In this document: positions 14,502 to 46,468 of the stretch, one piece after another
Layout: each line of letters opens with the position of its first letter
How positions within the stretch are numbered: position 1 is the first letter of the stretch
Source of the DNA: Cenarchaeum sp.
Lineage (GTDB): Archaea; Thermoproteota; Nitrososphaeria; Nitrososphaerales; Nitrosopumilaceae
DNA: 64,000 nucleotides
Assembly: GCA_965212015.1 (NCBI GenBank)
Contig: OZ243037.1
Span: 960,001 to 1,024,000, forward strand
Reading direction: 5' to 3'
Position numbers and translations under genes: made by a program
Notes under the pieces: generated by a model
The model's database searches: none
What the model was told of the DNA's origin: nothing
The model's input: the letters and a program-made list of their open reading frames with translations, nothing else

Positions 14502-14561
14502 GTAACAGGCTAGGTCCAAGAGGGATATTTGGATCCACAGGCGCCGGACCTAACCGATTAC
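14502..14561 (+). mobile_element. 60-bp MITE-like element, copy 1
   Basis: GTAACAGGCTAGGTCC...GGACCTAACCGATTAC imperfect TIRs; flanks TGCAGGCG / TGTAGGCG (8-bp TSD, 7/8). Confidence 0.8.
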
Positions 14562-14759
14562 TGTAGGCGCGCGACGTGTAACAGTTGGCTACTAGCTTGC
14601 ATGACTGGAATTTGCGTGTGATCGGCCTTTGGAATGGCAGGCGGGTCGCCGTACCGCCGAGTCAATTTCGTGGTTTTTTGATGGAAATCATATCCAAGGT
14701 ACAATTAGATCTATTTTGCATAACTCATTAACCTTTAATATGCGCGATTACAAAATGGC

Positions 14760-15209
14760 ATGATGGAGCATATTGGATATTTTGCATATGGTTCCAATCT
14801 GAATAAATCACAAATGCGGAAAAGGGTTGGAGCATGGCATTCGTCAAAAAGAGCACGTCTGATAGGATACGAGTTTGTGAGTAATGTTAAATCCAAAAGA
14901 TGGGATTGCAATACATCCAACGTGAGGGTGGGAAATGAAAATGATGTGGTATACGGAGTTGTCTATTTTATAACAAGAGAACAGCTTGACCAAATGACAT
15001 CCTTTGAAGGAATTGATCCGAGGTATGTGGATGTCACGGATGAAGATGAAAATGTGATACGCAATGTTGCAGTTTATTATTGGGACTGCGAGCATCCATC
15101 AGAAACACCTTCCAAAGCATACATAGATACCGTGATCGAAGGCATTATAGAGCATCAATATTCTGAGAGTGTAATTACAAAGGTAAAAAAAAGTTTTAAA
15201 AGATTATAG
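14760..15209 (+). CDS. Gamma-glutamylcyclotransferase (AIG2-like) family protein, AT-rich
   Basis: YFAYGSNL, VYGVVY, FEG, PSKAY motifs. Confidence 0.88.
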   Translation: MMEHIGYFAYGSNLNKSQMRKRVGAWHSSKRARLIGYEFVSNVKSKRWDCNTSNVRVGNENDVVYGVVYFITREQLDQMTSFEGIDPRYVDVTDEDENVIRNVAVYYWDCEHPSETPSKAYIDTVIEGIIEHQYSESVITKVKKSFKRL

Positions 15210-15245
15210 TCAAAGGTATGAGTATTTGGAACCAGAGTAACCCTC

Positions 15246-15313
15246 ATGAAATATTTCATCACGTCTAGCGAATATCTTTGTCCTGAAATACTCACGTGGG
15301 GAAATATTTCATC
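15246..15313. repeat. Palindrome ATGAAATATTTCAT with a second GAAATATTTCATC copy
   Basis: Perfect 14-bp palindrome 15246-15259; 13-bp direct repeat 15248-15260 / 15301-15313. Confidence 0.6.
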
Positions 15314-15554
15314 GCATCAAATGTAGTATTCAGATGGCGTTTTGAATGTAGTGGATCAGGTTTTCGTTTTGTCTGATGGGCGCCTGCCGGCATGCCAGTT
15401 TCCAGCTGTGCCAGTCCGGATCCCTGCCCATCACTCACGCAATCCCCCTTATGGGCAAAGCTCCATTTCTGCAATCAGGCAGATCCCGATCTGTTGCATC
15501 TGACACACATTGATGCAGTCTTTATATTAAAAAAAACCCCGCAGGATTGGCAGC

Positions 15555-17234
15555 CTATGGCCGCGTGTATGCCTGCGTATCTGCGCCGCCTAGCGTGTCA
15601 CGGTACGCCTGCGGAATGAGATCCCAGGACCTCTGTATCAGGTGCTGCACCATAGAGTCAAGCACGTACGTCCTGGCCCAGTCGTCCTGGCTGCGGATGG
15701 ATCTTCCAAACCCCTGCAGCAGCTTTGTCAGCGTCTGCGAGGCGTACCAGAGCGGGTATTTTTTCATCTTTAGGGCGACGCGCTTGTCAGAAAAGTTCGG
15801 GTACGGAATCTTTGAGATGATTTGAAACCTGGACATGTCGTCTTTGAGGTCGACTCCCTCCCACAGCGACGAGGAGAGAAGCACGCCGCCAGGGTCGCAA
15901 GAGTGCTCCGCTATTATCTCGTCAGGCGTCATTGCGCCCTCGCCTGCGTGGCATATCCTGATCCTCTTTCTGTTGGATTCTGACAGGTTGTCGCGTATCT
16001 GCCGGCACCTGGCCCTAGACGAGGTCAGCACCAGTCCGCGCTGGCCTGCGTGCGCGCAGAGCAGCTCGTCGATTCTCCCTATCACTGCCAGCTCGTCGGC
16101 CAGCGACGACCTGTATCCCAGGCTCCGGACGTTGAGAAACTCGATCCTGCGGTTCTCCAGCGGAAAGGGCGACACGGGCGCATCGACTATTGCCACATCG
16201 GACGGCGCAATGCCCGTAGTCTCGCAAAAAGAATTCCTGTTAATAGTGGCAGACATGAATACCTGCACCGGCGCATCAAAGAACTTTTGGACGTACTTTG
16301 AGATGTCAAGCGGCCTGACGTCGGCCAGGGAGTACTGCGGGTTTCGCGGCAGGTTTATGACAAAGTTGTCCTTGTTGGAGCTAATCTCGGCGCTTGCCGC
16401 CGCATACCTCGTATATCCCGCATCAAGGCGGTTTAGCAGGTCATAGTCCGGATTCTCCTCAAAGCCCGGACTCTGCTGAATGTCCGATATTTTTTTGGAA
16501 TAGTGCCCTGCCATGTCGTCGAGCAGCGCGGTGATGAGATCAATGTCGGACAGGTCGTACGAGTCCGTGTCGATGCCGCACTCTTCTGCATCCCTCCTGT
16601 TGATGGCGATTCCTATGAACTGGAGTATCTGATCCTCGATCTTGTGCGCCTCGTCGAATATCGCCACCGGCCGGTCCAGGTACTTTGCAAAGGTCTTTTT
16701 GTTGTACTTCATTATCTGGAAATAGGCGTAATAGTTCCACAAAGAGTGCGGGGAGATTAGCGCCGTGTATTTCTGATCATAGTACGGGCAGACTGTCCCC
16801 TCAAAGGAGCCGGATTCAAAGTCCTCTATTGCCGGCTTGTACTTGCAGTTGTACGTCTTGCCGTCCCTTTTTTCCTGGCACTGGCCCTTGTTGCACGTCA
16901 TGCGCAGCTCCATCGCCCTGGCAAGCTCCTTTTTTGCAACGCCGTTTTGCTCCATGATCTTCATGCACGCAAAGTTCGACTTGCCCTTGACCGGCCTGAG
17001 CATTTCAAACTCTTTTGAATACTGGTCCTGCAGCTGCTTTGAGGCGGTGACTATGAACGAGCCGCCATAGTGCAGTGAAAGGTTGACTGCAATCGGGGAT
17101 TTTCCCACCCCGGTGGGCGCAGATACGATGATTTTTTCGTACCCCGACTTTATGCTTTCCTCGATTCGGGCCACCAGATCCACCTGGATTGGCCGCGGCG
17201 TCAGGCCGGCAGGAAAGCTCCCAATCATTGCCAT
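15555..17234 (-). CDS. DinG/Rad3-like SF2 helicase
   Basis: Q motif, APTGVGKS, DEAH, SAT, EGVD, QGFGRSIR; Cys cluster for possible FeS domain. Confidence 0.92.
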   Translation of the reverse strand: MAMIGSFPAGLTPRPIQVDLVARIEESIKSGYEKIIVSAPTGVGKSPIAVNLSLHYGGSFIVTASKQLQDQYSKEFEMLRPVKGKSNFACMKIMEQNGVAKKELARAMELRMTCNKGQCQEKRDGKTYNCKYKPAIEDFESGSFEGTVCPYYDQKYTALISPHSLWNYYAYFQIMKYNKKTFAKYLDRPVAIFDEAHKIEDQILQFIGIAINRRDAEECGIDTDSYDLSDIDLITALLDDMAGHYSKKISDIQQSPGFEENPDYDLLNRLDAGYTRYAAASAEISSNKDNFVINLPRNPQYSLADVRPLDISKYVQKFFDAPVQVFMSATINRNSFCETTGIAPSDVAIVDAPVSPFPLENRRIEFLNVRSLGYRSSLADELAVIGRIDELLCAHAGQRGLVLTSSRARCRQIRDNLSESNRKRIRICHAGEGAMTPDEIIAEHSCDPGGVLLSSSLWEGVDLKDDMSRFQIISKIPYPNFSDKRVALKMKKYPLWYASQTLTKLLQGFGRSIRSQDDWARTYVLDSMVQHLIQRSWDLIPQAYRDTLGGADTQAYTRP

Positions 17235-17301
17235 GCACGCATCACCCCCGCGCGTCCCCCGCCGGTCCGCGCCCGTGGCAGCACAATGCGGCGCATGCCG
17301 T

Positions 17302-17850
17302 CTAGGCCACGGGATAGCCGCGCTCGGCCCTCAGTACAGGCATCTTTTGGTGCAGCCAGACGAGCAGCTTTATGAACTCGTCCGCCTCGTTTTTAATGTA
17401 ATTTTCAATCTCGCCGTGCTGCCCGTTGCGGTACCACTGCGGAATAGTCAGGCCGCTGTGCGGCTTGCCCGTTAGCTTGTCAAGGCCAGAGCCCTTGAAC
17501 TGCCCGTTGTTCATGAGAACCGCAATGCTGTGCAGATCAATGCACGGCCTTGACATTATGTCGATCGGGTGCTTGCTGTATTTTTTGGACTTTGATAGAA
17601 GAAACTTGTGCTCGAATGTCAGGTTGAATCCCACGGGGACAAAGTCAAAGCCGTACGTGTGTATGATCTTGGACTCGGTGATGAACTTTTGGATCATCGC
17701 CTCCTCGCCTTCCTCCCATTCCTTGAGAATGACTAGCTCGCCTGTCGGCCTGCCCGTTCCCTGCTCTAGCTCCTGGTACTGTATCGTTATGATCTTGTCG
17801 CCGAAAACATCCAGCCCCTCTGTCTCGATGTCAAGATAGTAATTTCCCAC
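17302..17850 (-). CDS. RNase H-like / DEDD 3'-5' exonuclease domain protein
   Basis: YLDIETEGLD ExoI, GFNLTFE ExoII-like, DLH, YIKNE ExoIII-like; GTG start. Confidence 0.75.
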   Translation of the reverse strand: MGNYYLDIETEGLDVFGDKIITIQYQELEQGTGRPTGELVILKEWEEGEEAMIQKFITESKIIHTYGFDFVPVGFNLTFEHKFLLSKSKKYSKHPIDIMSRPCIDLHSIAVLMNNGQFKGSGLDKLTGKPHSGLTIPQWYRNGQHGEIENYIKNEADEFIKLLVWLHQKMPVLRAERGYPVA

Positions 17851-18068
17851 AAGCTCGGTGCGGCGCGCCGTATTATAATTATTGCCCAGCGGACTCTTTC
17901 CGGGTCATGCAATCAGGATCGGCTGATCGCCTCCGATCATTGCCAAAAAAGGGAGTCACGCCCGGTGGACGCGGGTCGGTAATTTTGGCAGAAAGCGATC
18001 GGAACGCCTACAATATTCCTGCCATTTTTTTTCTAAACACATTAAAACCCGTTTTTTTATATTATTCC

Positions 18069-18574
18069 ATGAAAAAATCACACACCTTGGCATATTTGGA
18101 TACCAATATTCTGCTGATGATTATAAAATATGATGAATTTCCTGATTACGACTATAAACAATCCATTCACAAATGCTATATGACCACAGGATAAAGATCC
18201 CGCAGATAGTATTAGGGGAGGCGCTAGCAGTGATGTTGAAAAGCGAGTCAGATCCGGGGCGGATCTTGCAATGCACGACAGATATGGGCAACATATCAAA
18301 CAAGTGGAAGCTTGATTCTGACAAGTTTCCTCCCCCTAACAATCTGATCATACAAAGAGCAAAAATACTATCTGATCTTAGCGGCGTGGTAAACAATATG
18401 GATTCCTTGATTTTGGCTCATGCGATAGAGGATGGAGATGCCACGCATTTTTTAACGACTGACAGGCCGTTGAAAAACCCCCTAGTATTAAGCCATATCG
18501 AGGACCTGAAAAAGAATGGAACACGCAACCAGATCCTGAACATACCGGCCGAGTTTACAATAGGCAAAGACTAG
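18069..18574 (+). pseudogene. PIN-domain (VapC-like) nuclease split by a 1-nt frameshift near 18170
   Basis: AYLDTNIL in one frame; IPQIVLGE, DSLILAHA, FLTTD in the next. Confidence 0.75.
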
Positions 18575-19004
18575 TCAATTTCGAATAGACCGAATCAATG
18601 AACTTTGGGTCGTGATCACACTTTAGCATGTAAAAATGCTCCAGTTTTAGGCCCTTGTCAAGATTCGTCTCGTGCAGTATGGTTGCTGCAATCTCCAGCC
18701 AAGCAGTACTCTTGCCCCTCAATACTGACAAAAATTCCTCATGACGCAGCGCAGGCGGTGCCGATGCAGATGCCATGTTTGCAACGTCCAGATTATAGTA
18801 ATCCGACGTCAATCCACGCGAGTATGGTCCGCGCAGGTGTATATTGTACGCATAGCCTAGATCCAGCCCGAAATGTTTGGCCAGATATGTGTATTTTTGA
18901 ACCTTTAGGCGGTTCTCAAAGCCCTCGTCACTGTCATCTTTTAATCTGGCTACATTAACCATGCCCTGTCCCGAAAGATACGATACAAACTCCCCAAGTG
19001 CCAT
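18555..19004 (-). CDS. YwgA/SocA(Panacea)-like winged-helix protein, possible antitoxin
   Basis: LKVQKYTYL...Y.Y..HLRGPYS..L signature; WLEIAATI. Confidence 0.7.
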   Translation of the reverse strand: MALGEFVSYLSGQGMVNVARLKDDSDEGFENRLKVQKYTYLAKHFGLDLGYAYNIHLRGPYSRGLTSDYYNLDVANMASASAPPALRHEEFLSVLRGKSTAWLEIAATILHETNLDKGLKLEHFYMLKCDHDPKFIDSVYSKLTSLCLL

Positions 19005-19052
19005 ACACTTAACTGGCCACTCTACTCATATAAAATTACGCCATTGGTTAGT

Positions 19053-19112
19053 GCAACAGGTTAGGTTCAAGAGGGATATTTGGATCTACAGGCACGGGAC
19101 CTAACCGGATAC
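19053..19112 (+). mobile_element. 60-bp MITE-like element, copy 2
   Basis: GCAACAGGTTAGGTTC...GGACCTAACCGGATAC; flanks TGGTTAGT / TGGCTAGT (7/8). Confidence 0.8.
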
Positions 19113-19116
19113 TGGC

Positions 19117-19400
19117 TAGTCTGTTGCATAACTCACCTGATCATGCCAGATATCCCACTTTGACTCAGATTCCCATTGGATCGTTGCCAGTTCTGCCATC
19201 CTGCTGGACACGCCGGCCTTGATTTTCAGCTCCCGTATCATTCTCCCATTTGCACAAATACACATAATCCCCCAGGCATCTTGAATGTCGAAAAGACAAT
19301 CTCTACGAGCCATCTCTGGCCGTATCGCACGCGTTTTTTCCATCTTGGCTGGTTTTCGAGCCTTTCTGCCTCATCAAGCTGGCTTTGCCCCATAATGTGC
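19117..19400 (-). mobile_element. IS5-family remnant: transposase C-terminus plus one TIR
   Basis: Minus-strand frames give WKKRVRYGQRWLVEIVFSTFK then MIRELKIKAGV..RM, matching the 30391-30726 transposase; end TCTGTTGCATAACTC resembles TCTGTGTCACAACTC of the 30312 TIR. Confidence 0.75.
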
Positions 19401-19441
19401 CGTGTGTAATGTCAGAAAGTGGAATTACCGGACAATGCCGC

Positions 19442-22213
19442 CTATTCCGGACAGCCGTCGGAATCTGCGTCGCCGTCATGGTCCTCGGGGACGGCGGGGC
19501 ACTGGTCGTTGTCGTTGATTATGCCGTCAAGATCGCCGTCATGCACGAACCTGGACTGCTCTGGAATGACGTCGGGGCACCCGTCTGCGTCGCGGTACTT
19601 GTTCCACGTCTCCGGACTCGTCGGGCACTGGTCTATTGCGTCAGTAATATTGTCCCCGTCCGCATCAGGCGGGCTGTTTTCTGTGTCGCCCTGCGGAATG
19701 ACGTCGGGGCATCCGTCCCAGTCAAGATAATTGTTGAAATTCTCGCGCTCATCTAGGCACTGGTCCCACCTGTCGTCTATGCCGTCGGCATCAACGTCGG
19801 GGAACTCGTAGCGGACGGTATCAACCACCACGGTATCTGGGCATCCGTCCGTATCCTCAAAGCCGTTATAGACCTCCTTTGCTGTGGGGCACTCGTCTAT
19901 CGAGTTGTCGATATTGTCCTGGTCGGAGTCAAGATGCAGTTTTTCGCCGTCGGGGCATCCGTCCCAGTCGCTAAAGCCGTCGTGCACTTCTGCCTGGTTG
20001 GGGCACACATCCACATAGTCGTTGATTCCGTCGCCGTCAGAGTCCGGCACGCTCGCCTCGCTGCCCACAAAGTCCGGGCAGCCGTCAGAATCCATGTGCA
20101 GGTTGTAAGTCTCCGATACCGTAGGGCACAGGTCCACGTCGTCGGCCACGCCGTCAGAATCCCTGTCCCTTACCACCGTGTAATCGACATAGTCGGGGCA
20201 GCCGTCCTCGTCCCTGTAATTGTTATAGCGCTCGCCTGCTGCGGGGCACTTGTCCACAGAGTCCAGGATTCCGTCGCTGTCAGAGTCAAGCAGTACGCTT
20301 GATGCCGATCCCGGGACGTCCGGGCAGCCGTCCCAGTCAAGATAGCCGTTAAAGGTCTCGGCGCCCTCTAGGCACTGATCCCACCTGTCATCCACGCCGT
20401 CGGCATCGGTGTCGGGAAACTCGTATAGCATTACAGAGTCCTCGACTGCGTCAGGACACCCGTCGTCGTCCTGGAGCATGTTGTAGGTCTCCCTGTCCAG
20501 CACGCACAAGTCCTCGCTGTTGGGGATTCCGTCCCTGTCCGTGTCGGTAAGATCGGTAAACTCGTCGGGACACCCGTCAGAGTCGGCATAGTCGTTTATT
20601 GTCTCTGGCTGGTTGGGGCACAAATCCAGCGGGTCGCGGATACCGTCTGCATCAGAATCCAAATCAGAGGAATCGGCCGTCACCGAGTCCGGGCATCCGT
20701 CTGCGTCCTGGAACTTGTTATAGACCTCCTTGACCCTCGGGCACATGTCGATGTCGTCGCTGACTCCGTCGCCGTCAGAATCGCCCATGGACTCTGTCAG
20801 CAGCGTGTCGGGGCATCCGTCCTCGTCTAGCAGCCCGTTGTGCCTTTCTGCGATTGCGGGACAGAGATCCTCGCTGTCAGGTATCCCGTCCTCGTCAGCA
20901 TCGGTGAAAAATGACGCCGAGTCCAGCGGGGTGTCCGGGCAGCCGTCGCGATCCGCATAGCCGTTATAGGTCTCCGGTTCAGAGACGCACTGGTCCCACC
21001 TGTCATCCACGCCGTCGGCATCGGCATCGGGAAATTCGTAGAGCACGGAAGAGTCTGCAACCGCATCGGGACATCCGTCCTCGTCAAGATGCTTGTTCCA
21101 GATCTCGCGCGTATCGGGGCACTCGTCAGATATGTTTGGTATTCCGTCCGCATCGGTGTCGGTAAGATCGGTAAACTGGTCGGGGCAGCCGTCGGTGTCG
21201 GCATAATTGTTGTACGACTCGGGCTGGATCGGGCACAGGTCCAGGCGGTCGGAGATTCCGTCGCCGTCAGAATCCGGTATTGGTTTTTCCGTTGCGACAT
21301 AGTCCGGACAGCCGTCCTCGTCGAGAAACTGGTTGAATGTCTCTTTGCTAAATGGGCAGACATCAAAGTTGCTCGGTATGCCGTCAAAATCCACATCGGT
21401 GACTGTGGGCAGGAATATTACGTCGGGACAGCCGTCCTCGTCCTGGTACCCGTTAAAGTTCTCAGGTTCGGATACGCATTCGTCGACCTCGTCTATTATG
21501 GTGTCAAAGTCAGAGTCTTTTTTTGTGTCAGATGAAAACCCCATGGTGTCGGGACAGCCGTCCCAGTCAAGATAGCCGTCAAAGTTTTCGGCCTCGTTTA
21601 TGCATTGATCCCGCCTGTCCTCGATTCCGTCCGCATCGGCGTCCGGAAACTGATAGGCTGACGTGTCCGAGTCCACATCATCCGGGCAGCCGTCCGTATC
21701 CTGGAACATGTTGTAGGATTCCTGCTCGTACTGGCACAGGTCTGCCACGTCGGGAACCCCGTCCTGATCAGAGTCCCTCAGGGACATGTTGTCATCCGGG
21801 CAGCCGTCAAGATCCAGCAGTCCGTTGAACGTCTCGGGCTGGTTGGGGCACAGGTCTGCCGTGTCGATAAAGCCGTCAGAGTCGGTGTCGGCAGCTCCCG
21901 AACCGGTCTCTTGGGGTGCAGTATCAGGGCAGCCGTCCGTGTCCTCAAAGGCGTTGTAATTCTCCCTTACGGTGGGACAGCCGTCCAGGTGATCCTGTAT
22001 TCCGTCATGATCCACGTCGTACCAGGGGACAAAGTTCGACGGGCAGCCGTCAATGTCCCCCTCGCCGTCCTCGCGCACAAACGGGCACAAATCCACGGAA
22101 TCGGCAACGTTGTCACCGTCGATATCGTTGGGTGCGGCAAGGGTATGGACCGGAGCCATGCCCATGGTCACTGCCAAAAGTATAAACAATCCCAAAATGT
22201 GATATTCTCTCAT
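19442..22213 (-). CDS. Secreted thrombospondin type-3 repeat (Ca-binding) protein, about 22 repeats
   Basis: Signal peptide; DxDxDGxxDxxDxCP...DxDGCPD repeats. Confidence 0.92.
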   Translation of the reverse strand: MREYHILGLFILLAVTMGMAPVHTLAAPNDIDGDNVADSVDLCPFVREDGEGDIDGCPSNFVPWYDVDHDGIQDHLDGCPTVRENYNAFEDTDGCPDTAPQETGSGAADTDSDGFIDTADLCPNQPETFNGLLDLDGCPDDNMSLRDSDQDGVPDVADLCQYEQESYNMFQDTDGCPDDVDSDTSAYQFPDADADGIEDRRDQCINEAENFDGYLDWDGCPDTMGFSSDTKKDSDFDTIIDEVDECVSEPENFNGYQDEDGCPDVIFLPTVTDVDFDGIPSNFDVCPFSKETFNQFLDEDGCPDYVATEKPIPDSDGDGISDRLDLCPIQPESYNNYADTDGCPDQFTDLTDTDADGIPNISDECPDTREIWNKHLDEDGCPDAVADSSVLYEFPDADADGVDDRWDQCVSEPETYNGYADRDGCPDTPLDSASFFTDADEDGIPDSEDLCPAIAERHNGLLDEDGCPDTLLTESMGDSDGDGVSDDIDMCPRVKEVYNKFQDADGCPDSVTADSSDLDSDADGIRDPLDLCPNQPETINDYADSDGCPDEFTDLTDTDRDGIPNSEDLCVLDRETYNMLQDDDGCPDAVEDSVMLYEFPDTDADGVDDRWDQCLEGAETFNGYLDWDGCPDVPGSASSVLLDSDSDGILDSVDKCPAAGERYNNYRDEDGCPDYVDYTVVRDRDSDGVADDVDLCPTVSETYNLHMDSDGCPDFVGSEASVPDSDGDGINDYVDVCPNQAEVHDGFSDWDGCPDGEKLHLDSDQDNIDNSIDECPTAKEVYNGFEDTDGCPDTVVVDTVRYEFPDVDADGIDDRWDQCLDERENFNNYLDWDGCPDVIPQGDTENSPPDADGDNITDAIDQCPTSPETWNKYRDADGCPDVIPEQSRFVHDGDLDGIINDNDQCPAVPEDHDGDADSDGCPE

Positions 22214-22308
22214 CTTCTAGACGCATTTGTCAGGGCGTCTTTATTAAACGTCACGGTAAAAATCAGCTATCCGATTGAAACGATAATCTTGTAAAAGTCG
22301 TGCCGGGC

Positions 22309-25437: not shown

Positions 25438-25567
25438 TGCCCGAATTTACCTTTACGATCCTGTTATTAAACTTCACTCTAAAAAAATCCAAACCAACGG
25501 CGCCAAAGGGAATAACCCCGCAGGCGGCGATGCGATCACTTAAGTAAATCACTTGGGGAGTACCGCC

Positions 25568-34469: not shown

Positions 34470-34580
34470 AGGGGTGGATTCTTAGCTAACACTAATTAAA
34501 GCTTTTGAAGATTTCACCGATCAGGGAACGATCCACGTAAATAGTGAAGGTTTTAAGGCCAACAAAATCCATCTCAAGCC

Positions 34581-36672: not shown

Positions 36673-36720
36673 AGCCTGAAAGTGAAATGACTTAAATTAT
36701 TGGATTACAGATTTCAGGCC

Positions 36721-37701
36721 ATGATGACAGATGCCTCCGGCGCCACGCTGCTAGAGAGAAAGGATACGCCAAAGACGCCGGACAAAAAGACAAGCTTCGA
36801 CGTCATAATCATCGGCGCCGGGCCGGCGGGATACACCGCCGGAATCTATTGCTCGAGGGCGCGCAGGGACACGCTTGTTCTTTCGGGGATTCTGCCGGGG
36901 GGGCAGCTGGTAAACACCACGGACGTGGAGAACTATCCGGGGTTTGAAAACGGCGTAATGGGCCCCGACCTGATGATAATAATGAGAAAGCAGACAGAGA
37001 GGATGGGCACCACGATAATCGACGACGAGGTCGTAAATGTCGATTTCAGGCGCAGGCCGTTTAAGGTCCTGACGGCGCAGGAGGAATACGAGGCAAAGGC
37101 CGTAATCATCGGGACCGGCGCCAATCCAAGAAAGCTCGGGGTGCAAGGCGAGCAGTCCCTGGCAGGAAAGGGCGTCTCGTACTGTGCCACGTGCGACGGG
37201 CCGTTTTTCAAAAACCAGGAGCTAATAGTGGTCGGAGGCGGGGATTCGGCCATGGAGGAGGCCACGTTTCTGACAAAGTTTGCATCCAGGGTGCACCTGG
37301 TGCACAGAAGGGACGAGCTGAGGGCAAGCAAGGTGATGCAAGAGCGCCTGCTAGACGACGAAAAGGTGGTGCTGCATTTGAGCTCCAAAGTCAAGGAGAT
37401 ACAGGGAGACGGCAAGGTCAGCAGGGTAGTCCTAAAGTCAAAGTCAGGCGAGACCACGCTGGATGTGGGCGGCGTGTTTGTGGCAATAGGCCACGAGCCC
37501 AATACAAAGCTCTTCGGGGGCCAGATAGATACCGACGAGCTGGGATACATCAGGGTGAATGGCAGCAGGACCAGCGTCGAGGGGGTCTTTGCCGCAGGCG
37601 ACGTGCACGACAGCAGGTACAGGCAGGCAGTTACCGCGGCCGGATACGGCTGCATGGCGGCAATCGACGCAGACAAGTATCTTTCAGAACACTCTGGCTG
37701 A
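36721..37701 (+). CDS. trxB: Thioredoxin-disulfide reductase
   Basis: GAGPAG, CATCDG, GGGDSA, FAAGD. Confidence 0.96.
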   Translation: MMTDASGATLLERKDTPKTPDKKTSFDVIIIGAGPAGYTAGIYCSRARRDTLVLSGILPGGQLVNTTDVENYPGFENGVMGPDLMIIMRKQTERMGTTIIDDEVVNVDFRRRPFKVLTAQEEYEAKAVIIGTGANPRKLGVQGEQSLAGKGVSYCATCDGPFFKNQELIVVGGGDSAMEEATFLTKFASRVHLVHRRDELRASKVMQERLLDDEKVVLHLSSKVKEIQGDGKVSRVVLKSKSGETTLDVGGVFVAIGHEPNTKLFGGQIDTDELGYIRVNGSRTSVEGVFAAGDVHDSRYRQAVTAAGYGCMAAIDADKYLSEHSG

Positions 37702-38673
37702 TCACATGTACGCAGAATCAGATAGGTGTCTTGCGTTTTGCAGCGCGCCTTCAAACTCGGCCGAGTCCATTATGTTTTGCTGCGCATAGATGCTCTTGAA
37801 CTTGCGGCCGTCGTCGGCAAAGATTCCAACGGTGCACGAGCCGCCGTCAATGCCGTATTTTTTCATGCACGCATACACTGCGGCAGACGACGGGCTGATC
37901 AGGAGGCGGTCCTTTTCGTACACCTCCCTGACGGCCCCGAATGCCTGCGCGTTTGTCACGGACACCCAGTCATCCACTATGCCCTCGCGCCTCAAAAACA
38001 GATCCGGCTTTGCGGATTCCTCAAAGTTTCTCCAGCCCTGTATGAGGTGGTTTTGCTGCGGCTGGCAGCCGATTATCCTTACGTCGGGGTTTTTTTCCTT
38101 GAGGTACGTGCCCACCCCCGTGATCGTCCCCCCCGTTCCGACGCCCGTAAAAAAATGCGTTATTTTGCCTCCGGTCTGCCTCCAGATTTCGGGCCCCGTT
38201 CCGGCATAGTGGCCCATAAAGTTCGCCTCGTTTGCATACTGGTTTGGGGAATAGTACGTGTCAGGCCTGGAGGAGGCAATCGACGTGGCAAGCGCTATGC
38301 TTTGATCGGTGCCTGCACCTACCTTGGGGCAGAGATCATCGCTTGTCTCATAGACCTTGGCGCCCAGATTCCTTATAATGTCCTTAGTCTCGCTGCTGGC
38401 CTTTTCGGGGATTACAATCTCCACCTTGTAGCCCAGAAGATTTGCAATGCCGGTCAGCGCGATTCCGGTGTTGCCCGAGGTAGGCTCGATTATTATGCTG
38501 TGATTCCTCCTTAGGATCTTTTTGTCCTCGCCGTCTTTGATCATCCAGAATGCCGCCCTGTCCTTGACGGAGCCAAACGGGTTGTGGCCCTCCAGCTTTG
38601 CGTGATACGTCCTTGTGCCGTCAGAAAGGGAGTCAAGCATTACAAGCGGGGTGTTGCCCACCTTTTCTAGCAC
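37702..38673 (-). CDS. PLP-dependent cysteine synthase family protein
   Basis: GNTPLV, NPFGSVKDR, TSGNTG, GTGGT. Confidence 0.93.
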   Translation of the reverse strand: MLEKVGNTPLVMLDSLSDGTRTYHAKLEGHNPFGSVKDRAAFWMIKDGEDKKILRRNHSIIIEPTSGNTGIALTGIANLLGYKVEIVIPEKASSETKDIIRNLGAKVYETSDDLCPKVGAGTDQSIALATSIASSRPDTYYSPNQYANEANFMGHYAGTGPEIWRQTGGKITHFFTGVGTGGTITGVGTYLKEKNPDVRIIGCQPQQNHLIQGWRNFEESAKPDLFLRREGIVDDWVSVTNAQAFGAVREVYEKDRLLISPSSAAVYACMKKYGIDGGSCTVGIFADDGRKFKSIYAQQNIMDSAEFEGALQNARHLSDSAYM

Positions 38674-38697
38674 GTCAGTTGCAGCCTTTGTAGCCAG

Positions 38698-38934
38698 CTA
38701 TCTCACCTTTTTGATTGAAAATTCCAGTACGGTGCCGTTTTTCTTCATTTCCAGCAGTTCGTGGCCGTTTCTAGTCGTCCACCTCGAAATGTCCTCCTCT
38801 GCTGCGGGATCGTCGGCTAGCACCAAAAGCACGTCGCCTACCTGCATCCGCTCAATCTCCATCTTTGTCCTAAACACGGGCTCCGGGCAGAACAGTCCCG
38901 TGGCATCGAGTTTTTTTGGCGCGGCTTGTGACAT
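38698..38934 (-). CDS. tusA: TusA-family sulfur carrier
   Basis: LDATGLFCPEP, DDPAAEEDI..W. Confidence 0.9.
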   Translation of the reverse strand: MSQAAPKKLDATGLFCPEPVFRTKMEIERMQVGDVLLVLADDPAAEEDISRWTTRNGHELLEMKKNGTVLEFSIKKVR

Positions 38935-38985
38935 TTCTAGCATGTTTGGGCACGGTCTATATTAAAAGCTATTCGGGTTTTCCGG

Positions 38986-39045
38986 GCCGCAGGCCGAGTT
39001 CAGGAGGGATGTTTGGATCCGCAGGCACGAAACCTAACTGCCGGC
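38986..39045 (+). mobile_element. 60-bp MITE-like element, copy 3 (most degenerate)
   Basis: Gap-free alignment to other copies; flanks TTTTCCGG / TTTTCCCG (7/8). Confidence 0.72.
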
Positions 39046-39128
39046 TTTTCCCGAGTTGTTTCTCAAGTTCACTGCCATTCTGCGAGATGTCCGGTACGTG
39101 CCTGCAAAAACCATCATGTTCGTGCCAG

Positions 39129-42100
39129 TCACTGCCGTCCGTCATGCGAAGTGACGTACGCCCTGCCATACACGGAATCACGCAGCTCCTCCATCTGAAT
39201 AATGTGCGCGTCGCGCTTTTGGGCAAAGGCGTCGCACGCACGATTGTCCTCGTCGGTACACGCACTCGACATGTCGACTGGCGGCGCATCCACGTACGAC
39301 CACGTGCCAAACGCGTTCTTTGTCCACTGGTGTCCCAGCTGGTCGGTCCACACGTCTGCAAGCTTGTCGGTCCGAGTCAGGTGCAGCTTTACTGCGTCGC
39401 CCTGGTTTGAGTGCCTCTCGCTGAGCTCGTGCGTGGGGGGCACGTTTAGCGAGTCGCCAAACACCAGCAGCCCCTCGTTCATATAGTGGGTGGTGCCGCG
39501 CCTCTTTGAGTCCAGCGCGTTTATTGCAAACGGCTCGTCGTACAGCGTCTCGCGGAACAGTACGCCATCTATGTTCAGCCGCACGCACAGGTTGTTTTCG
39601 TCTGTAGGCAGGCATTTTACGCGCGATATCTCAAATGTGGCGTCCTCGCCTATCACGCGATTCTCGTTTGAATATTCCACAGAGTCTATCATGTACGTGG
39701 AGTTTATGGAATAGTCGCGTATCAGGTTTACGTTAATCTGCGCCTCTGCAGCATTCAGGGGCGAGCCTATTCCGGGCATGCCAAAGCCGATGTTAAACGA
39801 GCGCAGGCCGTTTTGTGCGTACGCCGTTAGCGCAAAGTCGTGAAGCGAGTCGGTCTCTATGGTATTGCGTTTGTAATCGACGTGATAGTCAGTTACGTCG
39901 CGGCAGACATTGTCCATGGAATAGCCGCAGTCCACTATTTTTTGGCCAGTCGTGTACGACTTGCCAAACGTCGGCTTTGTCCTCCACTGCGTGTCGTCAT
40001 CGCCTCCTCCCGAGCACGGTTCAAAGACAATGGTGGTAACCGTGACGGGCATGCTGCCGTCCTCGCCGGTGGTAGTGGTAGTTATGGTAAGCATCTGATC
40101 TGCCAGATCACTGCAGGCATAGTCCTCATCGGCAGTCGAGACAAGCATCGCCGTTCGTACGCCCTCCACATCAACAAACATCAAATCGAATAGGGCGTTA
40201 CCGTCACCGTCATCACCGGCGCCGGTAAGTTCCGGCTCGTACGTCACTGCGGTAAAGGTGGCATTATCCGGGGCACCCAGACTGCTTGCCGGGATGCTAA
40301 AGCCATCAGCTGTAGTCGCATCCAGCGTGATTACATCAGAGACCCGGATGTAGAGCGTGCCCAGAAATTCAGTGGTGGATACGCCGGGGCGCAGAAGAGC
40401 AGTATATTCAATGGTATAGTCTTCAGTCGCACCGGTGGGCGGCACCAGGTCAAGCGGTATGGTGCCGGACAGCCTCAGGTCGGAAGGATTCCGGTTTATG
40501 ATATTTCCGTGGCTCAGCCCGAGGGTCGCTAGCATCTCTTCGGCCACTTCGTCCAATACGAGGTCATAATTGACATTATCGGGCGTTATTGGAAACTGTA
40601 TGTCCACAGTGTCGCCGGGCGAATATACTGCTGAAAAGTTGCCGACAGTCGGGGCAAACGTCGTAAGGGTATAGAGGTTTGTGGCCCTTGCAACTACATC
40701 GCCTGCCTGTGCTGCCATTCCGTCCCTGGGACCGCCTATGGCAAGATCGCCCGGATTCATCGTGACGGAGCCTGACGTGGCGCGCAGCTCTGCTATAAAG
40801 TTCCATGTTTGGTTGCCTACAAAGTTCCTAGAGGGAATCGCCTCATCAGTGCCAGTTAAATCACCTTCAACACGGTAAAGGCCCATCAGATCGTTCTCAC
40901 GGTTGCCGCTACCGGGATTATGATGGGGGAATCCGGGCGGTGAGGGCAGCTGGTCACCCGGGAAAAAGAACTCTTCCCCGTTTGGAGCATCAATGGTTAT
41001 ACTGTCAAAAAACTCTTGTGCCGAGATCACCGAATTATGGCCTATCAGCACCCTCTTTGTAATGTCGGCAAACGATATGGAGGGCTGGGTGGAAGATGCA
41101 GTCGTCACTTGCAAACTCGAGAGGTGCGAGCCGTCACACACCAGATAATCGATGGTGGCCGTACCGCTGTTGCCAGTCGACGTAAAGGTCGCAAGGCCCG
41201 TATCGGAATCAATCGCAAGGGAGTCCGGAGTGATGGCGTTGCCTGCCAGGCCCGCAAAGGAGTACGTCAGGGTGTCCTCGGCATCGGTATCGCTGGTATA
41301 CAGGGAGAGATCCAGCTGTGTGGCAGTTCTGGCAAGCGGAATGTCCATGTTGTTCACGTTTGAGGGAAGGTCGTTGGGCGATCTTGCATTGTTGAATACA
41401 CTAACGGTATAGTCGCGCGAGACATCATCGGTATTATCGCTATCAAAGCCGTCATCAGATACCGTCACGGTAAACTCCACGCTGCCCTGCTCGAAGCACC
41501 TTGCGGGGGTATCCATGCTATCAAAAAGGGGCGAGTTGTCCTGCGGGACAATACCGGAGAGCTGTCCCGTGGCGGAATCTATGCTCAGCCAGCCCGGATG
41601 GTTCGAGAGGCTGTATTCCAGTACTGCGCCCGGGTCGTCATCGGATCCCGGAACCGGGGCCAATTCAGAGACGTCACTGTCCTCCGTAAAGCCAAAGTTC
41701 AGGTCCCCAAGCTCGGGAAGCGCCGTGTTTGTCGCAAACGCCAGAATGCCATTGCTGCTGCGTTCTGTAACGTATAGGATCCTAGAGTCCGAACCGAACT
41801 CCATCCCCGTTACCTGTGCGCTGGTTAGCGGCTGCCGCGCCCCCAAAAGGGTCAGATCACTCACGTCATGGGCGGTGCCGAGCGAATATGCATAGATATT
41901 GCGAAAGCTGTTGACTGCCTGCCCGCCCAGGACGTACAGTATGGAGCCGTCATCGGTGATTTCAGATCCGGTCGGGCGGCCATCGGGCAGAGGGGAACTT
42001 ACGGGAGGTGCAGAGATGCTTGTCAGGAAAAAGGGACCGCCTAGCGTGTACCCGTATATGCGGTCGTTTTCGGCGCCTACCACGTACATGTGCAGGCCGT

Positions 42101-45100
42101 CGCTTGAAAAGTCCAGTCCCTCCGGGACATTATCCGGAAGGGAGCCGGTGGCGGGAAAACTGCGGTCGGGGTCGGTGGGGGAGGACGGCATTGCATAGGG
42201 GGCATCGAGGATATACTCGTGTACGCGGTCGTTTTGGGTTCCAATTATAAACATGCGCTGGCCGTTATTTGAGAATTCCACCGCGGTGGGCGCAGTATCC
42301 GCAGAACCCACAAAGAACTCTGCGGTGAAATCATCAGACCTGCTCGATACGTCAAAGGCCGTACCGAGGTCATACTGGAGTATGCGATCATTTGCGCCGG
42401 ACTCTAGTACAAACAAGAGCGTGCCGTTACTGGAGAATGCCAGATCGGTGGGTATGGTATAGGTGCCGGAATGCGAGGTTGTGGGCGCATAGTCGATCAG
42501 TGGCGGAGTAAGTATCAGGTTGACAGAATAGTCGTTCGATGCCGTATTGCCGATGTTTATTGCGCTCTGGGCCGCACCTGCCGGAATTGATACGGTAATG
42601 ATGGCGTCGGTGGCCCCGCGAAGCACGTCAAAGTCAAACACGGTATTATCATCGGTTCTAAAGTTTGATACCACGTGAACGCCGGCGCTGCTCGATATTA
42701 TAATATCGGATGCCTCCAGTCCCGACACCGACTCGCTGAATGTGGCGTTAAACGCTGCAATGCCGTCGACTGTGGCATCCTCCTGGGTGGTGCTGCCGAT
42801 GATTACCGTGGGCGCGATGAGCTCGGGAAGGGAGAACCCAAAGACGTTATCAACAACTGTTCCGGAATTGCTAGAGCCGAGTGTAAACATGCGCTGGTTA
42901 TCAGCTGTTATGTGCAGGCCAACGAGGTTTCCGGTCTGGGGGTGAAAGGCAACAGAGTTTTCCATATACTCTACACCGGAGAGGATTGAGAACGGGGCGC
43001 CCAGCGCATACTCGTGGAATCTGGCGGCGAATCCTCCAATGACAAACATGGATGTGCCATCGGAGCGAAATGCCAGATCGTTTGGAAAAGTCAGGTTACG
43101 CGGCTCTGCATCGATCAGAACGACGGCGGCGCCGCTGGAGGATACATCAGAAAGGGAAAAGGGGACGCCCAGCGCAAACTCGTAGACGCTAATATCGGAA
43201 GTAGCGCCGCCAAGGACGAACAGCTTTGTGCCGTCAGATGAAAGGGCAAACCCGACTGTGGCCCCATCTATGCCGGTCAGCCTGTGCGAGTTTACCAGCG
43301 AGAGGGATTCCACATCATAGGGCGAATCCATGCTGTATTCATGGAGGTTGGGGGCTTCCAGCACAAACATGGTGCGTCCGTCGTTTGAGAATTCCGTATC
43401 CGACGGCACTGTAGTCCCCGGCAGTACGGCCACGGGGCCGCGCACAATGTCGCTGTTGGGGTTGCCCGTCGTGTTTGCAAAGACAAACGGCGTTCCGCTG
43501 GTGGAGTATGTGGTGATATCGCGATCATTGGCCTCTATTATGAACATGAGCGTGCCGTTCCTTGAAAAGTCCACGTTGCGCGGAACGTCACCTGCCGTCG
43601 ACCTCTCAAATGTCTGGTCAAATACGAGCGTGTTGTTCAGGGTAAGTGTCCTGACGTCATCCACTATGCGGAGTGTTACGGGTTCGACGTCCGCATTACT
43701 TGGACCGGTGGCAACGACGTTAAATTCAACGTTCCCGACGGCATCTGGCGTCCATGTGAACGCGCCGCCGGCCGTTATCGCGGCGGATGCCGGCGCGCCG
43801 TCGAGTGCAAAGCTTGCCGGCCGGCCCGATACCAGGCCGAACTGCAGCGAGATCGGCCCATCCACCACGTATTGGTGCGATATTACCGGCAGTATGATTA
43901 CGGGCGGCAGTCCGGCGGTAAATGTGGCCGTACGAATTTCGGATGCCGTATTGCTCTGTGGAGAGTCGTCCACATCCATGGCGATGCCCTCCGGAATGCT
44001 CACATTTATTGTGCCGTCCGTGCCGTTGCGCTGCACATCAAAGGCGAATGTGGCTGCCTGGCCGGTGGCGGGCGAAAAATTCGACGCCCTGTGGGTGCCG
44101 GCAGGCGCGGTGCTATCCACGGTAATCTCGTCTATGAAAAATTGCGACACGGGCTCGCTGAACTCGGCCATAAACCGTATGGTCTCCAGGTTGGTGGTCC
44201 CCTCGTGTTCCACATCGGTACTAGTTACGTTCACGGTGGGCCGGATGCCAAATGAAATCAGGTACGGGATGGCTGGCGCCACATTGGCGGTGCCTTGCAG
44301 ATCCATAAACGTACCGGCGGCAATGAATATGCTCAGGGTCTCCTCGGTGTCCCGGATGCCTATCTGAAAGCTGTATATGAGATCGGTTCTCCGGGTAAGG
44401 TTCTCCGGCACATAGCCCTCGCTGGAGCCGCCAAGGAAGGTAATGTCATCTAGTGTAAACGTGCTCTCCATTATGGGCTCGCTGAATGTGGCGTTAAAAT
44501 TGGCCACATCCAAGAGCGTTTCGCCGAGATCCGGCACGTCGGTGCTGGTGATTGTGACTGTGGGCGGGCCATCCGGCGCGGTAAAAGTGGCGGTATAAAC
44601 TTCGGATGCCGCATTGCCGTGTGGAAGGTGATCCACATCAATGGCGGCGCCCTCCGGAATGCTCACATTTATTGTGCCGCCCGCGTCGTTGCGCTGCACA
44701 TCAAAGGTGAATATGGTTGCCGGGCCGGTGGCGGGCAAAAGATTCGACGCCCTGTGGGTGCCGGCAGACGCGGTGCTATCCACGATAATCTCGCTTGCAA
44801 GAAACTGCGACACGGGCTCGCTGAACTCGGCCATAAACCGTATGGTCTCCAGGTTGGCGGTCCCCTCGTGTTCCACATCATCACTGGTTACGTTCACGGT
44901 GGGTATGCTGACAAATGTAAAGGAGTACGGGGCAGTTGACGCATCATTGGCGTTGCCTTGCAGATCCGTGAACGTATCGGCGAGAATGCGTATGGCCAAG
45001 GTAGCTTCGGTGTCTTCGCTGTCTATCTGAAAGCTGTATACGAAGTCGTTTACCCGGGCAACGTTCGTTGCCATATGGACTCCGGGGGGGCCGACGAAGG

Positions 45101-46358
45101 TAATGTCATCTTCTGTAAACGTGCTTTCGTCTATGCGCTCGTTGAATGTGGCGTTAAAATTGGCCACATCCGAGGTCGCATCGCCGAGATCCGGCACGAC
45201 GGTGCTGGAGATTGTGACTGTGGGCGGGGTGTTATCCACTTGGGAAAAAGCGGTGGTAAATGGAATTGCCGCAGAGTTGAAGTTATTCTGACCCACACTA
45301 CGCGCCCTGTCTACGGGAATCGACACGGTCAGATCACCGATGGAGGATCCAATACCGACGACAAACGTGTACCGGGAGGGGTTGACTTGCATAAAGCTCG
45401 ATACTTGGGGATCGCCGCCGTTTACGGTACCTGACAGTTCGATCCCCGTTGCGTTAAATCCCGTTACAGGCTCGTTGAATCGGACGTCAAATGTTATGGA
45501 TGATGCGGGCGTGAATGTGCCGTTTGCCAGAGGCGAACCGTCATTGGCCGTGATTGTCGGGATGGTGGGCAGCGTAAAGGCGGCGCGGAGCGGATACTGG
45601 AGGACGGTGTCGGTAGTCGAGGAGACGATATACATGGTCCTGCCGTCAACTGAAAAGTCTATTCCGCGGTAATTAGTAGATGGTGGGGTAAAAGTGTCAA
45701 CGGCTGCACCGAGACCGTCCAGGTTAAAGGGCGGATTCAGGTTGAACTGCTCAATCGCCCTCGCACCCATCACAAACAGCCTTGTGCCGTCAGTGGAGAT
45801 TGCCACGCCGAGAGCACCACCAAACGTGCCTGGATTAAAACTGCTGTCGGCTGCACCGGCGGAGGAAACATCAAAGGGCGTTGAGAGCCGGTATCCAGAA
45901 ATACTACCCCCTCCAATAAACACCCAATCGCCGTTAGCAGAGAATGTAGCACCTAGTCCGCCGCTGATGCAGCAGCCGACGTTTTCGAGTGGAGTGTATG
46001 AATTACTACCATCAATGCTGTACGGGGCAAGACTGTTTCGCCCGTTATTTAGAACATACAAGGTACTCCCGTCATTGGAGACTAGTACGTCCTGAAACTC
46101 GAATGCGTGAGAAGGGGGAAAGTTTCCGCCAGTCGTGCCGGGTACGGTGGCGCTAGCTATGTCAAAGGGGGTACTGAGCGAGAATGTAATGATACTATTG
46201 GTTCCTGAAACATACAATGTCATGCCGTCGTTGGACATGGTCAGCCCCGTGGGTATGCTTTCAGGAGGATTGACGCTGATGGATGTCTGGGCATAAGCCG
46301 AGACTGGGATCAAAACCAACAGTGGCAACAGAAAGGCTACCATCATGCTCTTTTGCAT
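39129..46358 (-). CDS. Giant secreted surface protein A (about 2409 aa): signal peptide, beta-propeller-like repeats, Ig-like and cadherin-like domains, shared C-terminal domain
   Basis: Start MQKSMMV matches paralogue; repeats like PTDLAFSSNGTLLFV...YDLGTAFDVSS and FSEPV.QF...TINVSIPEG. Confidence 0.9.
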   Translation of the reverse strand: MQKSMMVAFLLPLLVLIPVSAYAQTSISVNPPESIPTGLTMSNDGMTLYVSGTNSIITFSLSTPFDIASATVPGTTGGNFPPSHAFEFQDVLVSNDGSTLYVLNNGRNSLAPYSIDGSNSYTPLENVGCCISGGLGATFSANGDWVFIGGGSISGYRLSTPFDVSSAGAADSSFNPGTFGGALGVAISTDGTRLFVMGARAIEQFNLNPPFNLDGLGAAVDTFTPPSTNYRGIDFSVDGRTMYIVSSTTDTVLQYPLRAAFTLPTIPTITANDGSPLANGTFTPASSITFDVRFNEPVTGFNATGIELSGTVNGGDPQVSSFMQVNPSRYTFVVGIGSSIGDLTVSIPVDRARSVGQNNFNSAAIPFTTAFSQVDNTPPTVTISSTVVPDLGDATSDVANFNATFNERIDESTFTEDDITFVGPPGVHMATNVARVNDFVYSFQIDSEDTEATLAIRILADTFTDLQGNANDASTAPYSFTFVSIPTVNVTSDDVEHEGTANLETIRFMAEFSEPVSQFLASEIIVDSTASAGTHRASNLLPATGPATIFTFDVQRNDAGGTINVSIPEGAAIDVDHLPHGNAASEVYTATFTAPDGPPTVTITSTDVPDLGETLLDVANFNATFSEPIMESTFTLDDITFLGGSSEGYVPENLTRRTDLIYSFQIGIRDTEETLSIFIAAGTFMDLQGTANVAPAIPYLISFGIRPTVNVTSTDVEHEGTTNLETIRFMAEFSEPVSQFFIDEITVDSTAPAGTHRASNFSPATGQAATFAFDVQRNGTDGTINVSIPEGIAMDVDDSPQSNTASEIRTATFTAGLPPVIILPVISHQYVVDGPISLQFGLVSGRPASFALDGAPASAAITAGGAFTWTPDAVGNVEFNVVATGPSNADVEPVTLRIVDDVRTLTLNNTLVFDQTFERSTAGDVPRNVDFSRNGTLMFIIEANDRDITTYSTSGTPFVFANTTGNPNSDIVRGPVAVLPGTTVPSDTEFSNDGRTMFVLEAPNLHEYSMDSPYDVESLSLVNSHRLTGIDGATVGFALSSDGTKLFVLGGATSDISVYEFALGVPFSLSDVSSSGAAVVLIDAEPRNLTFPNDLAFRSDGTSMFVIGGFAARFHEYALGAPFSILSGVEYMENSVAFHPQTGNLVGLHITADNQRMFTLGSSNSGTVVDNVFGFSLPELIAPTVIIGSTTQEDATVDGIAAFNATFSESVSGLEASDIIISSSAGVHVVSNFRTDDNTVFDFDVLRGATDAIITVSIPAGAAQSAINIGNTASNDYSVNLILTPPLIDYAPTTSHSGTYTIPTDLAFSSNGTLLFVLESGANDRILQYDLGTAFDVSSRSDDFTAEFFVGSADTAPTAVEFSNNGQRMFIIGTQNDRVHEYILDAPYAMPSSPTDPDRSFPATGSLPDNVPEGLDFSSDGLHMYVVGAENDRIYGYTLGGPFFLTSISAPPVSSPLPDGRPTGSEITDDGSILYVLGGQAVNSFRNIYAYSLGTAHDVSDLTLLGARQPLTSAQVTGMEFGSDSRILYVTERSSNGILAFATNTALPELGDLNFGFTEDSDVSELAPVPGSDDDPGAVLEYSLSNHPGWLSIDSATGQLSGIVPQDNSPLFDSMDTPARCFEQGSVEFTVTVSDDGFDSDNTDDVSRDYTVSVFNNARSPNDLPSNVNNMDIPLARTATQLDLSLYTSDTDAEDTLTYSFAGLAGNAITPDSLAIDSDTGLATFTSTGNSGTATIDYLVCDGSHLSSLQVTTASSTQPSISFADITKRVLIGHNSVISAQEFFDSITIDAPNGEEFFFPGDQLPSPPGFPHHNPGSGNRENDLMGLYRVEGDLTGTDEAIPSRNFVGNQTWNFIAELRATSGSVTMNPGDLAIGGPRDGMAAQAGDVVARATNLYTLTTFAPTVGNFSAVYSPGDTVDIQFPITPDNVNYDLVLDEVAEEMLATLGLSHGNIINRNPSDLRLSGTIPLDLVPPTGATEDYTIEYTALLRPGVSTTEFLGTLYIRVSDVITLDATTADGFSIPASSLGAPDNATFTAVTYEPELTGAGDDGDGNALFDLMFVDVEGVRTAMLVSTADEDYACSDLADQMLTITTTTTGEDGSMPVTVTTIVFEPCSGGGDDDTQWRTKPTFGKSYTTGQKIVDCGYSMDNVCRDVTDYHVDYKRNTIETDSLHDFALTAYAQNGLRSFNIGFGMPGIGSPLNAAEAQINVNLIRDYSINSTYMIDSVEYSNENRVIGEDATFEISRVKCLPTDENNLCVRLNIDGVLFRETLYDEPFAINALDSKRRGTTHYMNEGLLVFGDSLNVPPTHELSERHSNQGDAVKLHLTRTDKLADVWTDQLGHQWTKNAFGTWSYVDAPPVDMSSACTDEDNRACDAFAQKRDAHIIQMEELRDSVYGRAYVTSHDGRQ
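39178..45230. repeat. Long direct repeat shared with 49220-54600 (offset about 10.04 kb), including an internal tandem duplication of an Ig-like pair (about 43920-45230)
   Basis: Near-identical blocks; shadow ORFs duplicate at offsets 10036-10042. Confidence 0.9.
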
Positions 46359-46392
46359 ATACAACCCCCCCCCCCAACTGCTTATAAAAGTA
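46359..46392 (-). promoter_or_regulatory. Leaderless-type promoter with G11 tract between TATA box and ATG
   Basis: Minus strand TTTTATAA-GCAGTT-G11-TTGTAT-ATG; C-run 46365-46375. Confidence 0.8.
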
Positions 46393-46408
46393 TAATCATC
46401 GGTTTTTT

Positions 46409-46468
46409 GTAACCGGTTAGGTTCAAGCGGGATATTTGGATCCGCAGGCACCGGACCTAACCGGTTAC
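46409..46468 (+). mobile_element. 60-bp MITE-like element, copy 4 (perfect TIRs)
   Basis: GTAACCGGTTAGGT...ACCTAACCGGTTAC perfect 14-bp inverted repeat; no clean TSD. Confidence 0.8.

Follow-up and report, generated by a model that had tools for sequence, protein, structure and literature searches.

A 60-bp repeat present in four copies in the stretch of DNA analysed here (the window, 64,000 nucleotides, bases 960001-1024000 of a Cenarchaeum sp. genome) was found to be a genuine miniature inverted-repeat transposable element (MITE), that is, the non-autonomous form of an IS66-family insertion sequence (IS) with a single open reading frame (ORF). Both the MITE and intact relatives of its parent in other genomes lie at a nearly constant distance upstream of TATA boxes, and elements of this IS66 lineage very probably target their integration to the side of promoters. 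The complete statement, namely that promoters are targeted, that the site is chosen at integration, and that it is chosen through a promoter occupied by TBP and TFB, stands in our judgement evenly poised between true and false.

The genome is a single contig of 1,764,220 bp with 51% G+C. It encodes an archaeal amoA (E 9e-119), and the host is therefore an ammonia-oxidising archaeon. TATA-like hexamers peak genome-wide at 27-30 nt ahead of start codons, and expectation-maximisation on 854 upstream regions gave a promoter motif, AA-n2-TTTWAAW, beginning 33-36 nt before the start codon. Since both the peak and the motif are so close to the start codon, most transcripts of this genome appear to be leaderless. 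This is consistent with the thaumarchaeal amo genes, for which TATA/BRE (B recognition element) motifs 23-24 nt before the starts, and leaderless starts, are reported (PMC3379541).

The repeat, its parent element and their distance to TATA boxes

A profile built from the four window copies had 33 matches at E<1e-3 across the genome of 1.76 Mb, and the MITE consensus had 0 matches in shuffled versions of the window; a chance origin of the repeat is thereby excluded. The terminal inverted repeats have GTAACCGGTTAGGTYC ends, complementary at 15/16 positions in the fourth window copy, and in the 25 of the 33 copies that are exactly 60 nt long the complementarity ranges from 0.28 to 0.84 per position over terminal positions 1-16. 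Target-site duplications of 8 bp were perfect in 7/33 copies and had no more than one mismatch in 14/33, the other 19 being degenerate or rearranged, and many of the perfect ones directly adjoin the GTAA...TTAC ends of the element. An earlier note on this DNA had proposed a MITE with 8-bp duplications from the window copies, and the genome-wide counts bear this out. Its assignment of the repeat to the IS66 family also held. A scan with the terminal 16-mers found a pair of ends matching those of the MITE 1407 bp apart (genome 541586-542992), and the decayed IS between them holds frameshifted pieces of DDE_Tnp_IS66 (PF03050, E 1.1e-5 and 2.6e-7, just over the cut-off). The MITE and the 1407-bp IS are alike in the terminal 15-16 bp only. 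Outside this locus the parent survives in the genome as fragments, with no intact copy.

The distance to the promoter was expressed as the offset from the element end to the first strong T of the TATA core. In the strict test, an 8-nt TATA core with a score of at least 4.5 was sought in the 60 nt beyond each element end, and the best core was found at offset 19-22 from one end in 23/33 MITE copies. Among positions outside gene calls the corresponding proportion was 6.5% (20,000 sampled) or 6.7% (exhaustive), and the binomial p for 23/33 against this non-coding null is 2.3e-20. When any core scoring at least 5 was counted in 6-nt intervals, the interval 18-23 held 23/33 copies and six other intervals held 1-5/33. 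The fragments of IS ends in this genome had a TATA core at 18-22 in 4/4 cases, and over all sets together, including those from other genomes described below, 43 of the 53 conforming flanks are at offset 19-21. Integration proceeds by an 8-bp staggered cut, whose promoter-side edge falls 11-12 bp ahead of the first T in the box, just upstream of the BRE position, and this places the element end 19-21 nt from that T. The promoter reads away from the element and remains intact. The fixed distance claimed for the window thus extends to the whole genome and to the intact relatives elsewhere; the fixed orientation claimed together with it does not. The left end of the MITE faces the promoter in 16 conforming flanks and the right end in 10, while for the IS the end upstream of the transposase gene does so in 16 and the other end in 11, giving 32:21 overall. 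The common orientation of all four window copies is a small-sample effect.

A search of 40 relatives, 4 of them belonging to the same genus, did not find the MITE, so that an orthologous empty site was not available for comparison. Over positions 12500-21500 of the window, contigs from four public runs break at the MITE, with many loose ends that represent other copies, and none of them joins past a copy plus one duplication. Filled and empty versions do exist among the paralogous giant-protein promoters described below, but these carry extra rearrangements and offer no clean empty sites.

A piece of the broken transposase had relatives in 20 of the 180 genomes sampled from the taxonomic family of this archaeon, and in 0/120 genomes from other families of the class; one of the 20 genomes, G249, was left out of the analysis. 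The first set consisted of 40 copies of intact elements from seven genomes. These elements are 1438-1717 bp long, and each is filled by a single ORF that encodes 447-506 aa. DDE_Tnp_IS66 was recognised in each of the six transposases tested (E 1e-21 to 1e-29), and the alignment retains a CxxC...CxxC motif and the acidic residues. The ends are of the GTA type, and the duplications are mostly perfect and 8 bp long, with 9 bp in one related family (G266). By their single ORF the elements fall into the ISBst12-like group, tnpA/tnpB accessory genes not having been searched for separately. The 394-aa transposase at locus L003 belongs to a different element. A TATA core was present at 18-23 in 25/40 IS copies, with 2-7/40 in the other 6-nt intervals; by the strict test 19/40 copies conformed, where the nulls of the individual genomes were 0.9-8.6% (p = 1.2e-10 when tested against the highest). 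A hold-out of 20 further copies was then scored with the criterion unchanged. After 2 truncated copies had been dropped, several of the remaining ones being from new sub-families, 8/18 had a core at 18-23 and the other intervals held 0-2/18 (P = 5.9e-5). The TATA spacing is a property of the transposase lineage. One IS66-type copy in G300 (L069, G300:C1:1067771-1068286) was noted about 1.5 kb from a TBP gene, which is probably a coincidence.

These results also bear on whether the repeat could be kept at this distance for a regulatory role, in which it would activate or repress the genes downstream or act as a structured RNA. Conservation is higher in the central 28 bp than at the ends (0.87 vs 0.78-0.81 in the 25 copies of exactly 60 nt), and some old copies retain the core only, as might be expected of such a function. 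However, the target duplications are clear, the repeat is missing from the 40 relatives, the downstream genes are unrelated, both orientations occur, and full-length IS of 1.4-1.7 kb with a different sequence are found at the same offset. The repeat itself has no Rfam match, and Rfam at gathering thresholds gave tRNAs only, in the window and in eight MITE loci. Retention as a regulatory element is thus very improbable.

Control families and a second family with a sharp offset

The same spacing could arise if insertion were random and copies persisted only in a narrow harmless zone upstream of promoters. Such survivor bias would fit compact genomes, from which an element that had landed within a gene, or between TATA box and start codon, would disappear, and it would fit the three conforming MITE copies that are less than 100 nt from the gene called on their far side (83, 31 and 8 nt). 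The controls were ten other IS families, five with DDE_Tnp_1 and five with DDE_3 transposases, represented by 79 full-length copies in G144, G176, G266 and G300. They survive in the same genomes without a peak, having a core at 18-23 in 7/79 copies and at 14-19 in 4/79 (Fisher p = 1.2e-9 vs the IS66 set). Since other IS families persist in other contexts, selection alone does not funnel insertions to this place, and survivor bias, which the earlier note had named as the case that would refute it, is contradicted. The peak, moreover, is 3 nt wide, with only 4-7/40 IS copies and 4-5/33 MITE copies in the intervals 10-15 and 26-31; IS copies that are 98-100% mutually identical already display it; and 18/21 single-sided conforming MITE copies are at least 100 nt from the far-side gene, as judged from crude gene calls. 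We regard survivor bias as very improbable. The four control genomes are very IS-rich, with 50-135 DDE_Tnp_1 and 22-94 DDE_3 matches per genome, in contrast to the few decayed copies of the genome that contains the window.

A second family with a sharp offset was found in G176 and G144 (loci L098-L104, L116-L125 and L227-L242). This is an IS5-like element of about 1.25 kb with a DDE_Tnp_1 transposase of 319-323 aa and 9-bp duplications, unrelated to IS66. Its TATA core was at 14-19 in 7/15 copies and, in a hold-out, in 10/16, with a mode of 17 and 0-4 copies in the other intervals, which makes 17/31 in total. Two unrelated transposases have thus been shown to possess each a sharp offset of its own, and ten other families have none.

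Target promoters and the four copies of the window

In 32/53 conforming flanks the TATA box is followed, 23-42 nt further on, by the start of an ORF with at least 45 aa, and comparable 16-nt windows on the far side contain an ORF start in about 11/53. One target is a tRNA-Asp gene, whose 5' end is 51 nt from the element. The possibility that elements also insert between the TATA box and the start codon was considered and rejected, as ORF starts at the far end (11/53) were no more frequent than in shifted windows (12/53 and 11/53). In the 53 flanks aligned at the junction, the duplicated 8 bp have no sequence preference, offsets 15-18 on the element side of the box are A-rich (A = 0.58 at 16) like the BRE part of the motif, and a near-pure W tract occupies 21-24, with no G/C at 22-24. 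This set was selected for a TATA core, and its W tract is therefore partly circular. A 41-nt stretch of the region next to the tRNA-Asp gene was seen to recur, with a 71-nt period, near another MITE copy (genome 477343-477525 and 480424-480464).

Paralogous promoters were hit more than once. At two tandem paralogous promoters (genome 604116 and 604596) the MITE occupies the same site in opposite orientations, which indicates independent hits. The genes concerned are two tandem paralogous 51-aa ORFs (604116-604655); one MITE there has a perfect duplication and the other none. The promoter family of the giant proteins, which has ten members, was likewise hit several times by the MITE. Between TATA box and ATG, all ten of these promoters have in common a run of 5-13 G, which is interrupted in some of them (window 46359-46382; genome 92294, 391536, 398084, 404840, 414679, 422544, 541588, 820359 and 1017645). 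Its length varies among paralogues, which may reflect slippage-based switching of surface proteins, and in G245 a comparable run of C was seen after a TATA box (L088). A second, related type of element end (GTGATYGATCAGGTCG...) was observed 18-20 nt upstream of the TATA box at three giant-protein promoters (genome 414693, 422557 and 820443), at the last of which a MITE was later inserted 8 nt beyond this end. The second end type was rejected as a set of independent events, there being only three copies, all in one family of paralogous promoters.

In the window itself, four gap-free 60-bp copies were seen where the earlier note had placed them, all on the plus strand and each upstream of a minus-strand gene. 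Copy 1 (14502..14561; nhmmer 68.3 bits) has the ends GTAACAGG...CCGATTAC and is flanked by TGCAGGCG on the left (14494..14501) and TGTAGGCG on the right (14562-14569). The TATA-like box CTTTATC (14476..14482, minus strand), a weak match to the promoter matrix, has its first T 21 nt from the element, and the GTG start of a translin-family gene (13836..14453, minus strand; PF01997, E 1.1e-8) is 49 nt from it. Although the divergent spacer here would measure about 240 nt if the element were removed, the element is 21 nt from one TATA box. Copy 2 (19053..19112; 69.2 bits), flanked by TGGTTAGT (19045..19052) and TGGCTAGT (19113-19120), is 19 nt from the first T of a TTTATA box (19029..19034, minus strand) and 49 nt from the ATG at 19004 of a 149-aa gene without a Pfam family (18555..19004, minus strand). 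In runs X3 and X4, which come from a related population, contigs connect 17892 to 19443 through 7 other letters; they lack 17893-19442 and therefore have neither the 149-aa gene nor copy 2.

Copy 3 (38986..39045; 58.8 bits), with diverged ends and a conserved core, is flanked by TTTTCCGG (38978..38985) and TTTTCCCG (39046-39053). The first T of its TATA box TTTTAATATA (38958..38967, minus strand) is 19-20 nt away, and the gene downstream is tusA (38698..38943, minus strand, ATG at 38943 or 38934; PF01206, E 1.3e-24). Copy 4 (46409..46468) has no duplication. Both of its flanks are common to the MITE copy at genome 391551, and it therefore belongs to a segmental duplicate. Its box, TTTTATA (46383..46389, minus strand), has TTTATA beginning 21 nt from the MITE and is followed on the gene strand by the run of G, and the ATG of a giant protein gene of about 2409 codons (39129..46358, minus strand) is 51 nt away.

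Most of the particulars given earlier for these copies could be reproduced. The 8-bp duplications have one mismatch each in copies 1-3 and are absent from copy 4, and the left end was measured to be 21, 19, 19-20 and 21 nt away from the first T in TTTAWA, where 21, 19, 20 and 21 nt had been given. The start-codon distance, given as 49-52 nt, was measured as 43-52 nt. Pfam supported translin and TusA, and the giant gene was found at about 2409 codons; the name YwgA-like given to the 149-aa gene had no Pfam match behind it. The consensus put forward for the repeat matches, with up to 3 mismatches, the copy at 46409 only. The other three are more diverged, with 4 mismatches each in copies 1 and 2 and many more in copy 3, mostly at the ends.

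Choice of the insertion site and comparison with known systems

If the TATA box is taken to begin about 30 nt ahead of the start codon, the 8 duplicated bp fall at about -42 to -49. According to published footprints, this position is directly upstream of the region covered by TBP and TFB at the TATA box and BRE. We propose that the insertion site would be chosen at integration and not by later loss of other insertions, and that the transposase complex might read the promoter in its TBP/TFB-occupied state, either by protein contact or by the deformation of the DNA at the edge of the complex. The promoter-side site could then serve as a harmless landing place in a gene-dense genome. The occupied promoter is favoured as the cue because the second family has its own offset and because no shared TATA-like binding motif was found in the element ends; for two families with different offsets, one shared host structure is easier to accept than two separate TATA-reading domains. 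A dependence on TBP/TFB, as opposed to bare TATA DNA, is in our estimate a proposition with equal weight on either side. We advance more tentatively, and with somewhat less confidence, that in archaea at least two unrelated families of DNA transposons, one IS66-type and one IS5-like, dock on the TBP/TFB-occupied promoter and integrate, each at its own fixed distance from the TATA box.

A serious rival is direct recognition, in which the transposase reads an A/T-rich TATA-like sequence or its bendability and TBP and TFB take no part, promoters being hit since such sequences lie there in non-coding DNA. The near-pure W tract at 21-24 is the only strongly conserved feature of the flanks, and the box may lie next to either element end, as for a symmetric complex reading DNA. 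An ORF start at the expected distance is missing in 21/53 conforming flanks, one of which is the tRNA, and some of the TATA boxes may thus be non-promoters, which would favour plain recognition of DNA. Against this, the W tract is in part the product of the preselection already mentioned, the A-rich offsets 15-18 mark the boxes as oriented promoters, as in the BRE, a second and unrelated transposase family behaves alike at another offset, and the element ends have no common TATA-like binding motif. Taken together, direct recognition is possible but rather unlikely.

The flanks without an ORF start weigh against promoter targeting through TBP/TFB as proposed here, and so do several other points. 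About one third of the copies do not conform: among the IS copies of the first set and the hold-out, 25/58 have no core at 18-23, the MITE at genome 1458931 has a perfect duplication with the nearest promoter 87 nt away, that at 68823 is at an offset of 25-26 nt, and the decayed full-length IS touches a TATA box with one end (offset 2-3) and has none at the other. Several degenerate MITE copies could not be judged for their offset. The criterion windows of the first sets were chosen after inspection of the data and were preset only in the later hold-outs and in the fragment test. Genes were called in a crude way (1597 of them, covering 81% of the genome), so that distances to neighbouring genes are upper bounds, and all data come from surviving insertions, not fresh ones. 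Finally, a contact of the transposase with TBP or TFB is something that we infer. A complex prediction for the G300 transposase with one TFB core and one TBP of that genome, which has at least 6 TFB and 2-3 TBP paralogues, gave a score of 0.01 and counts neither for nor against such a contact.

Literature searches found no promoter-targeted archaeal IS elements or MITEs, most subscription journals being outside the search, so that a prior description is possible. In the main text of an archaeal IS survey, the words promoter, TATA and target site are absent (PMC13343696). The choice of targets through host transcription factors is a textbook trait of eukaryotic retroelements in compact genomes, and archaeal promoters use the same TBP/TFIIB-type machinery. 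The precision of the site to the nucleotide and its specificity for the family make the question testable with a transposase, a mini-element, a promoter, TBP and TFB. Landing beside TATA boxes explains how dozens of IS copies are accommodated in genomes of 1.7-3 Mb without gene wreckage, and the insertion sites provide a cheap annotation of promoters in uncultured ammonia-oxidising archaea. Each insertion also swaps out everything upstream of the BRE and may rewire regulation. If docking by two families is true, it would be a prokaryotic counterpart of the safe-haven targeting of Ty3 by TFIIIB, independent of eukaryotic retroelements; the insertion sites would then record in nature which promoters had been occupied, and the transposases might serve as a tool for placing DNA close to archaeal promoters.

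The IS66 family is defined by the 8-bp duplication and GTAA-type termini, and its ISBst12-like group by a single ORF without tnpA/tnpB. The elements described here share with this group the DDE_Tnp_IS66 transposase, the 8-bp duplications, the GTA(A) termini and one ORF per 1.4-1.7 kb. Unlike the family as described, their insertion site is fixed relative to the TATA box; we know of no target preference of IS66 elements beyond the 8-bp duplication, and nothing on such a preference was found in literature searches. The yeast LTR retrotransposon Ty3 is placed by its integrase at the start site of Pol III genes through TFIIIB, which contains TBP and the TFIIB-like Brf1, and the contact has been demonstrated. 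The archaeal elements resemble it in a position fixed on the scale of nucleotides beside a promoter of the TBP/TFIIB type (43/53 flanks at 19-21), with the gene left intact. They differ in being DDE DNA transposons, in inserting upstream of the BRE at both mRNA and tRNA promoters, and in that a link to TBP/TFB is here a proposal. The tRNA-gene-targeting Dictyostelium elements TRE5-A and DGLT-A and Tf1 of S. pombe are eukaryotic retroelements that insert at distances of about 50 bp or at distances defined by nucleosomes or Sap1. These, too, are elements of compact genomes at set distances upstream of genes or promoters, but with wider peaks. IS1397, which inserts into bacterial REP sequences, is like the present elements a prokaryotic IS with an extragenic target that spares genes. 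There, however, the repeated palindrome itself is hit, whereas here the target 8-mer is arbitrary and only the distance to the promoter is fixed.

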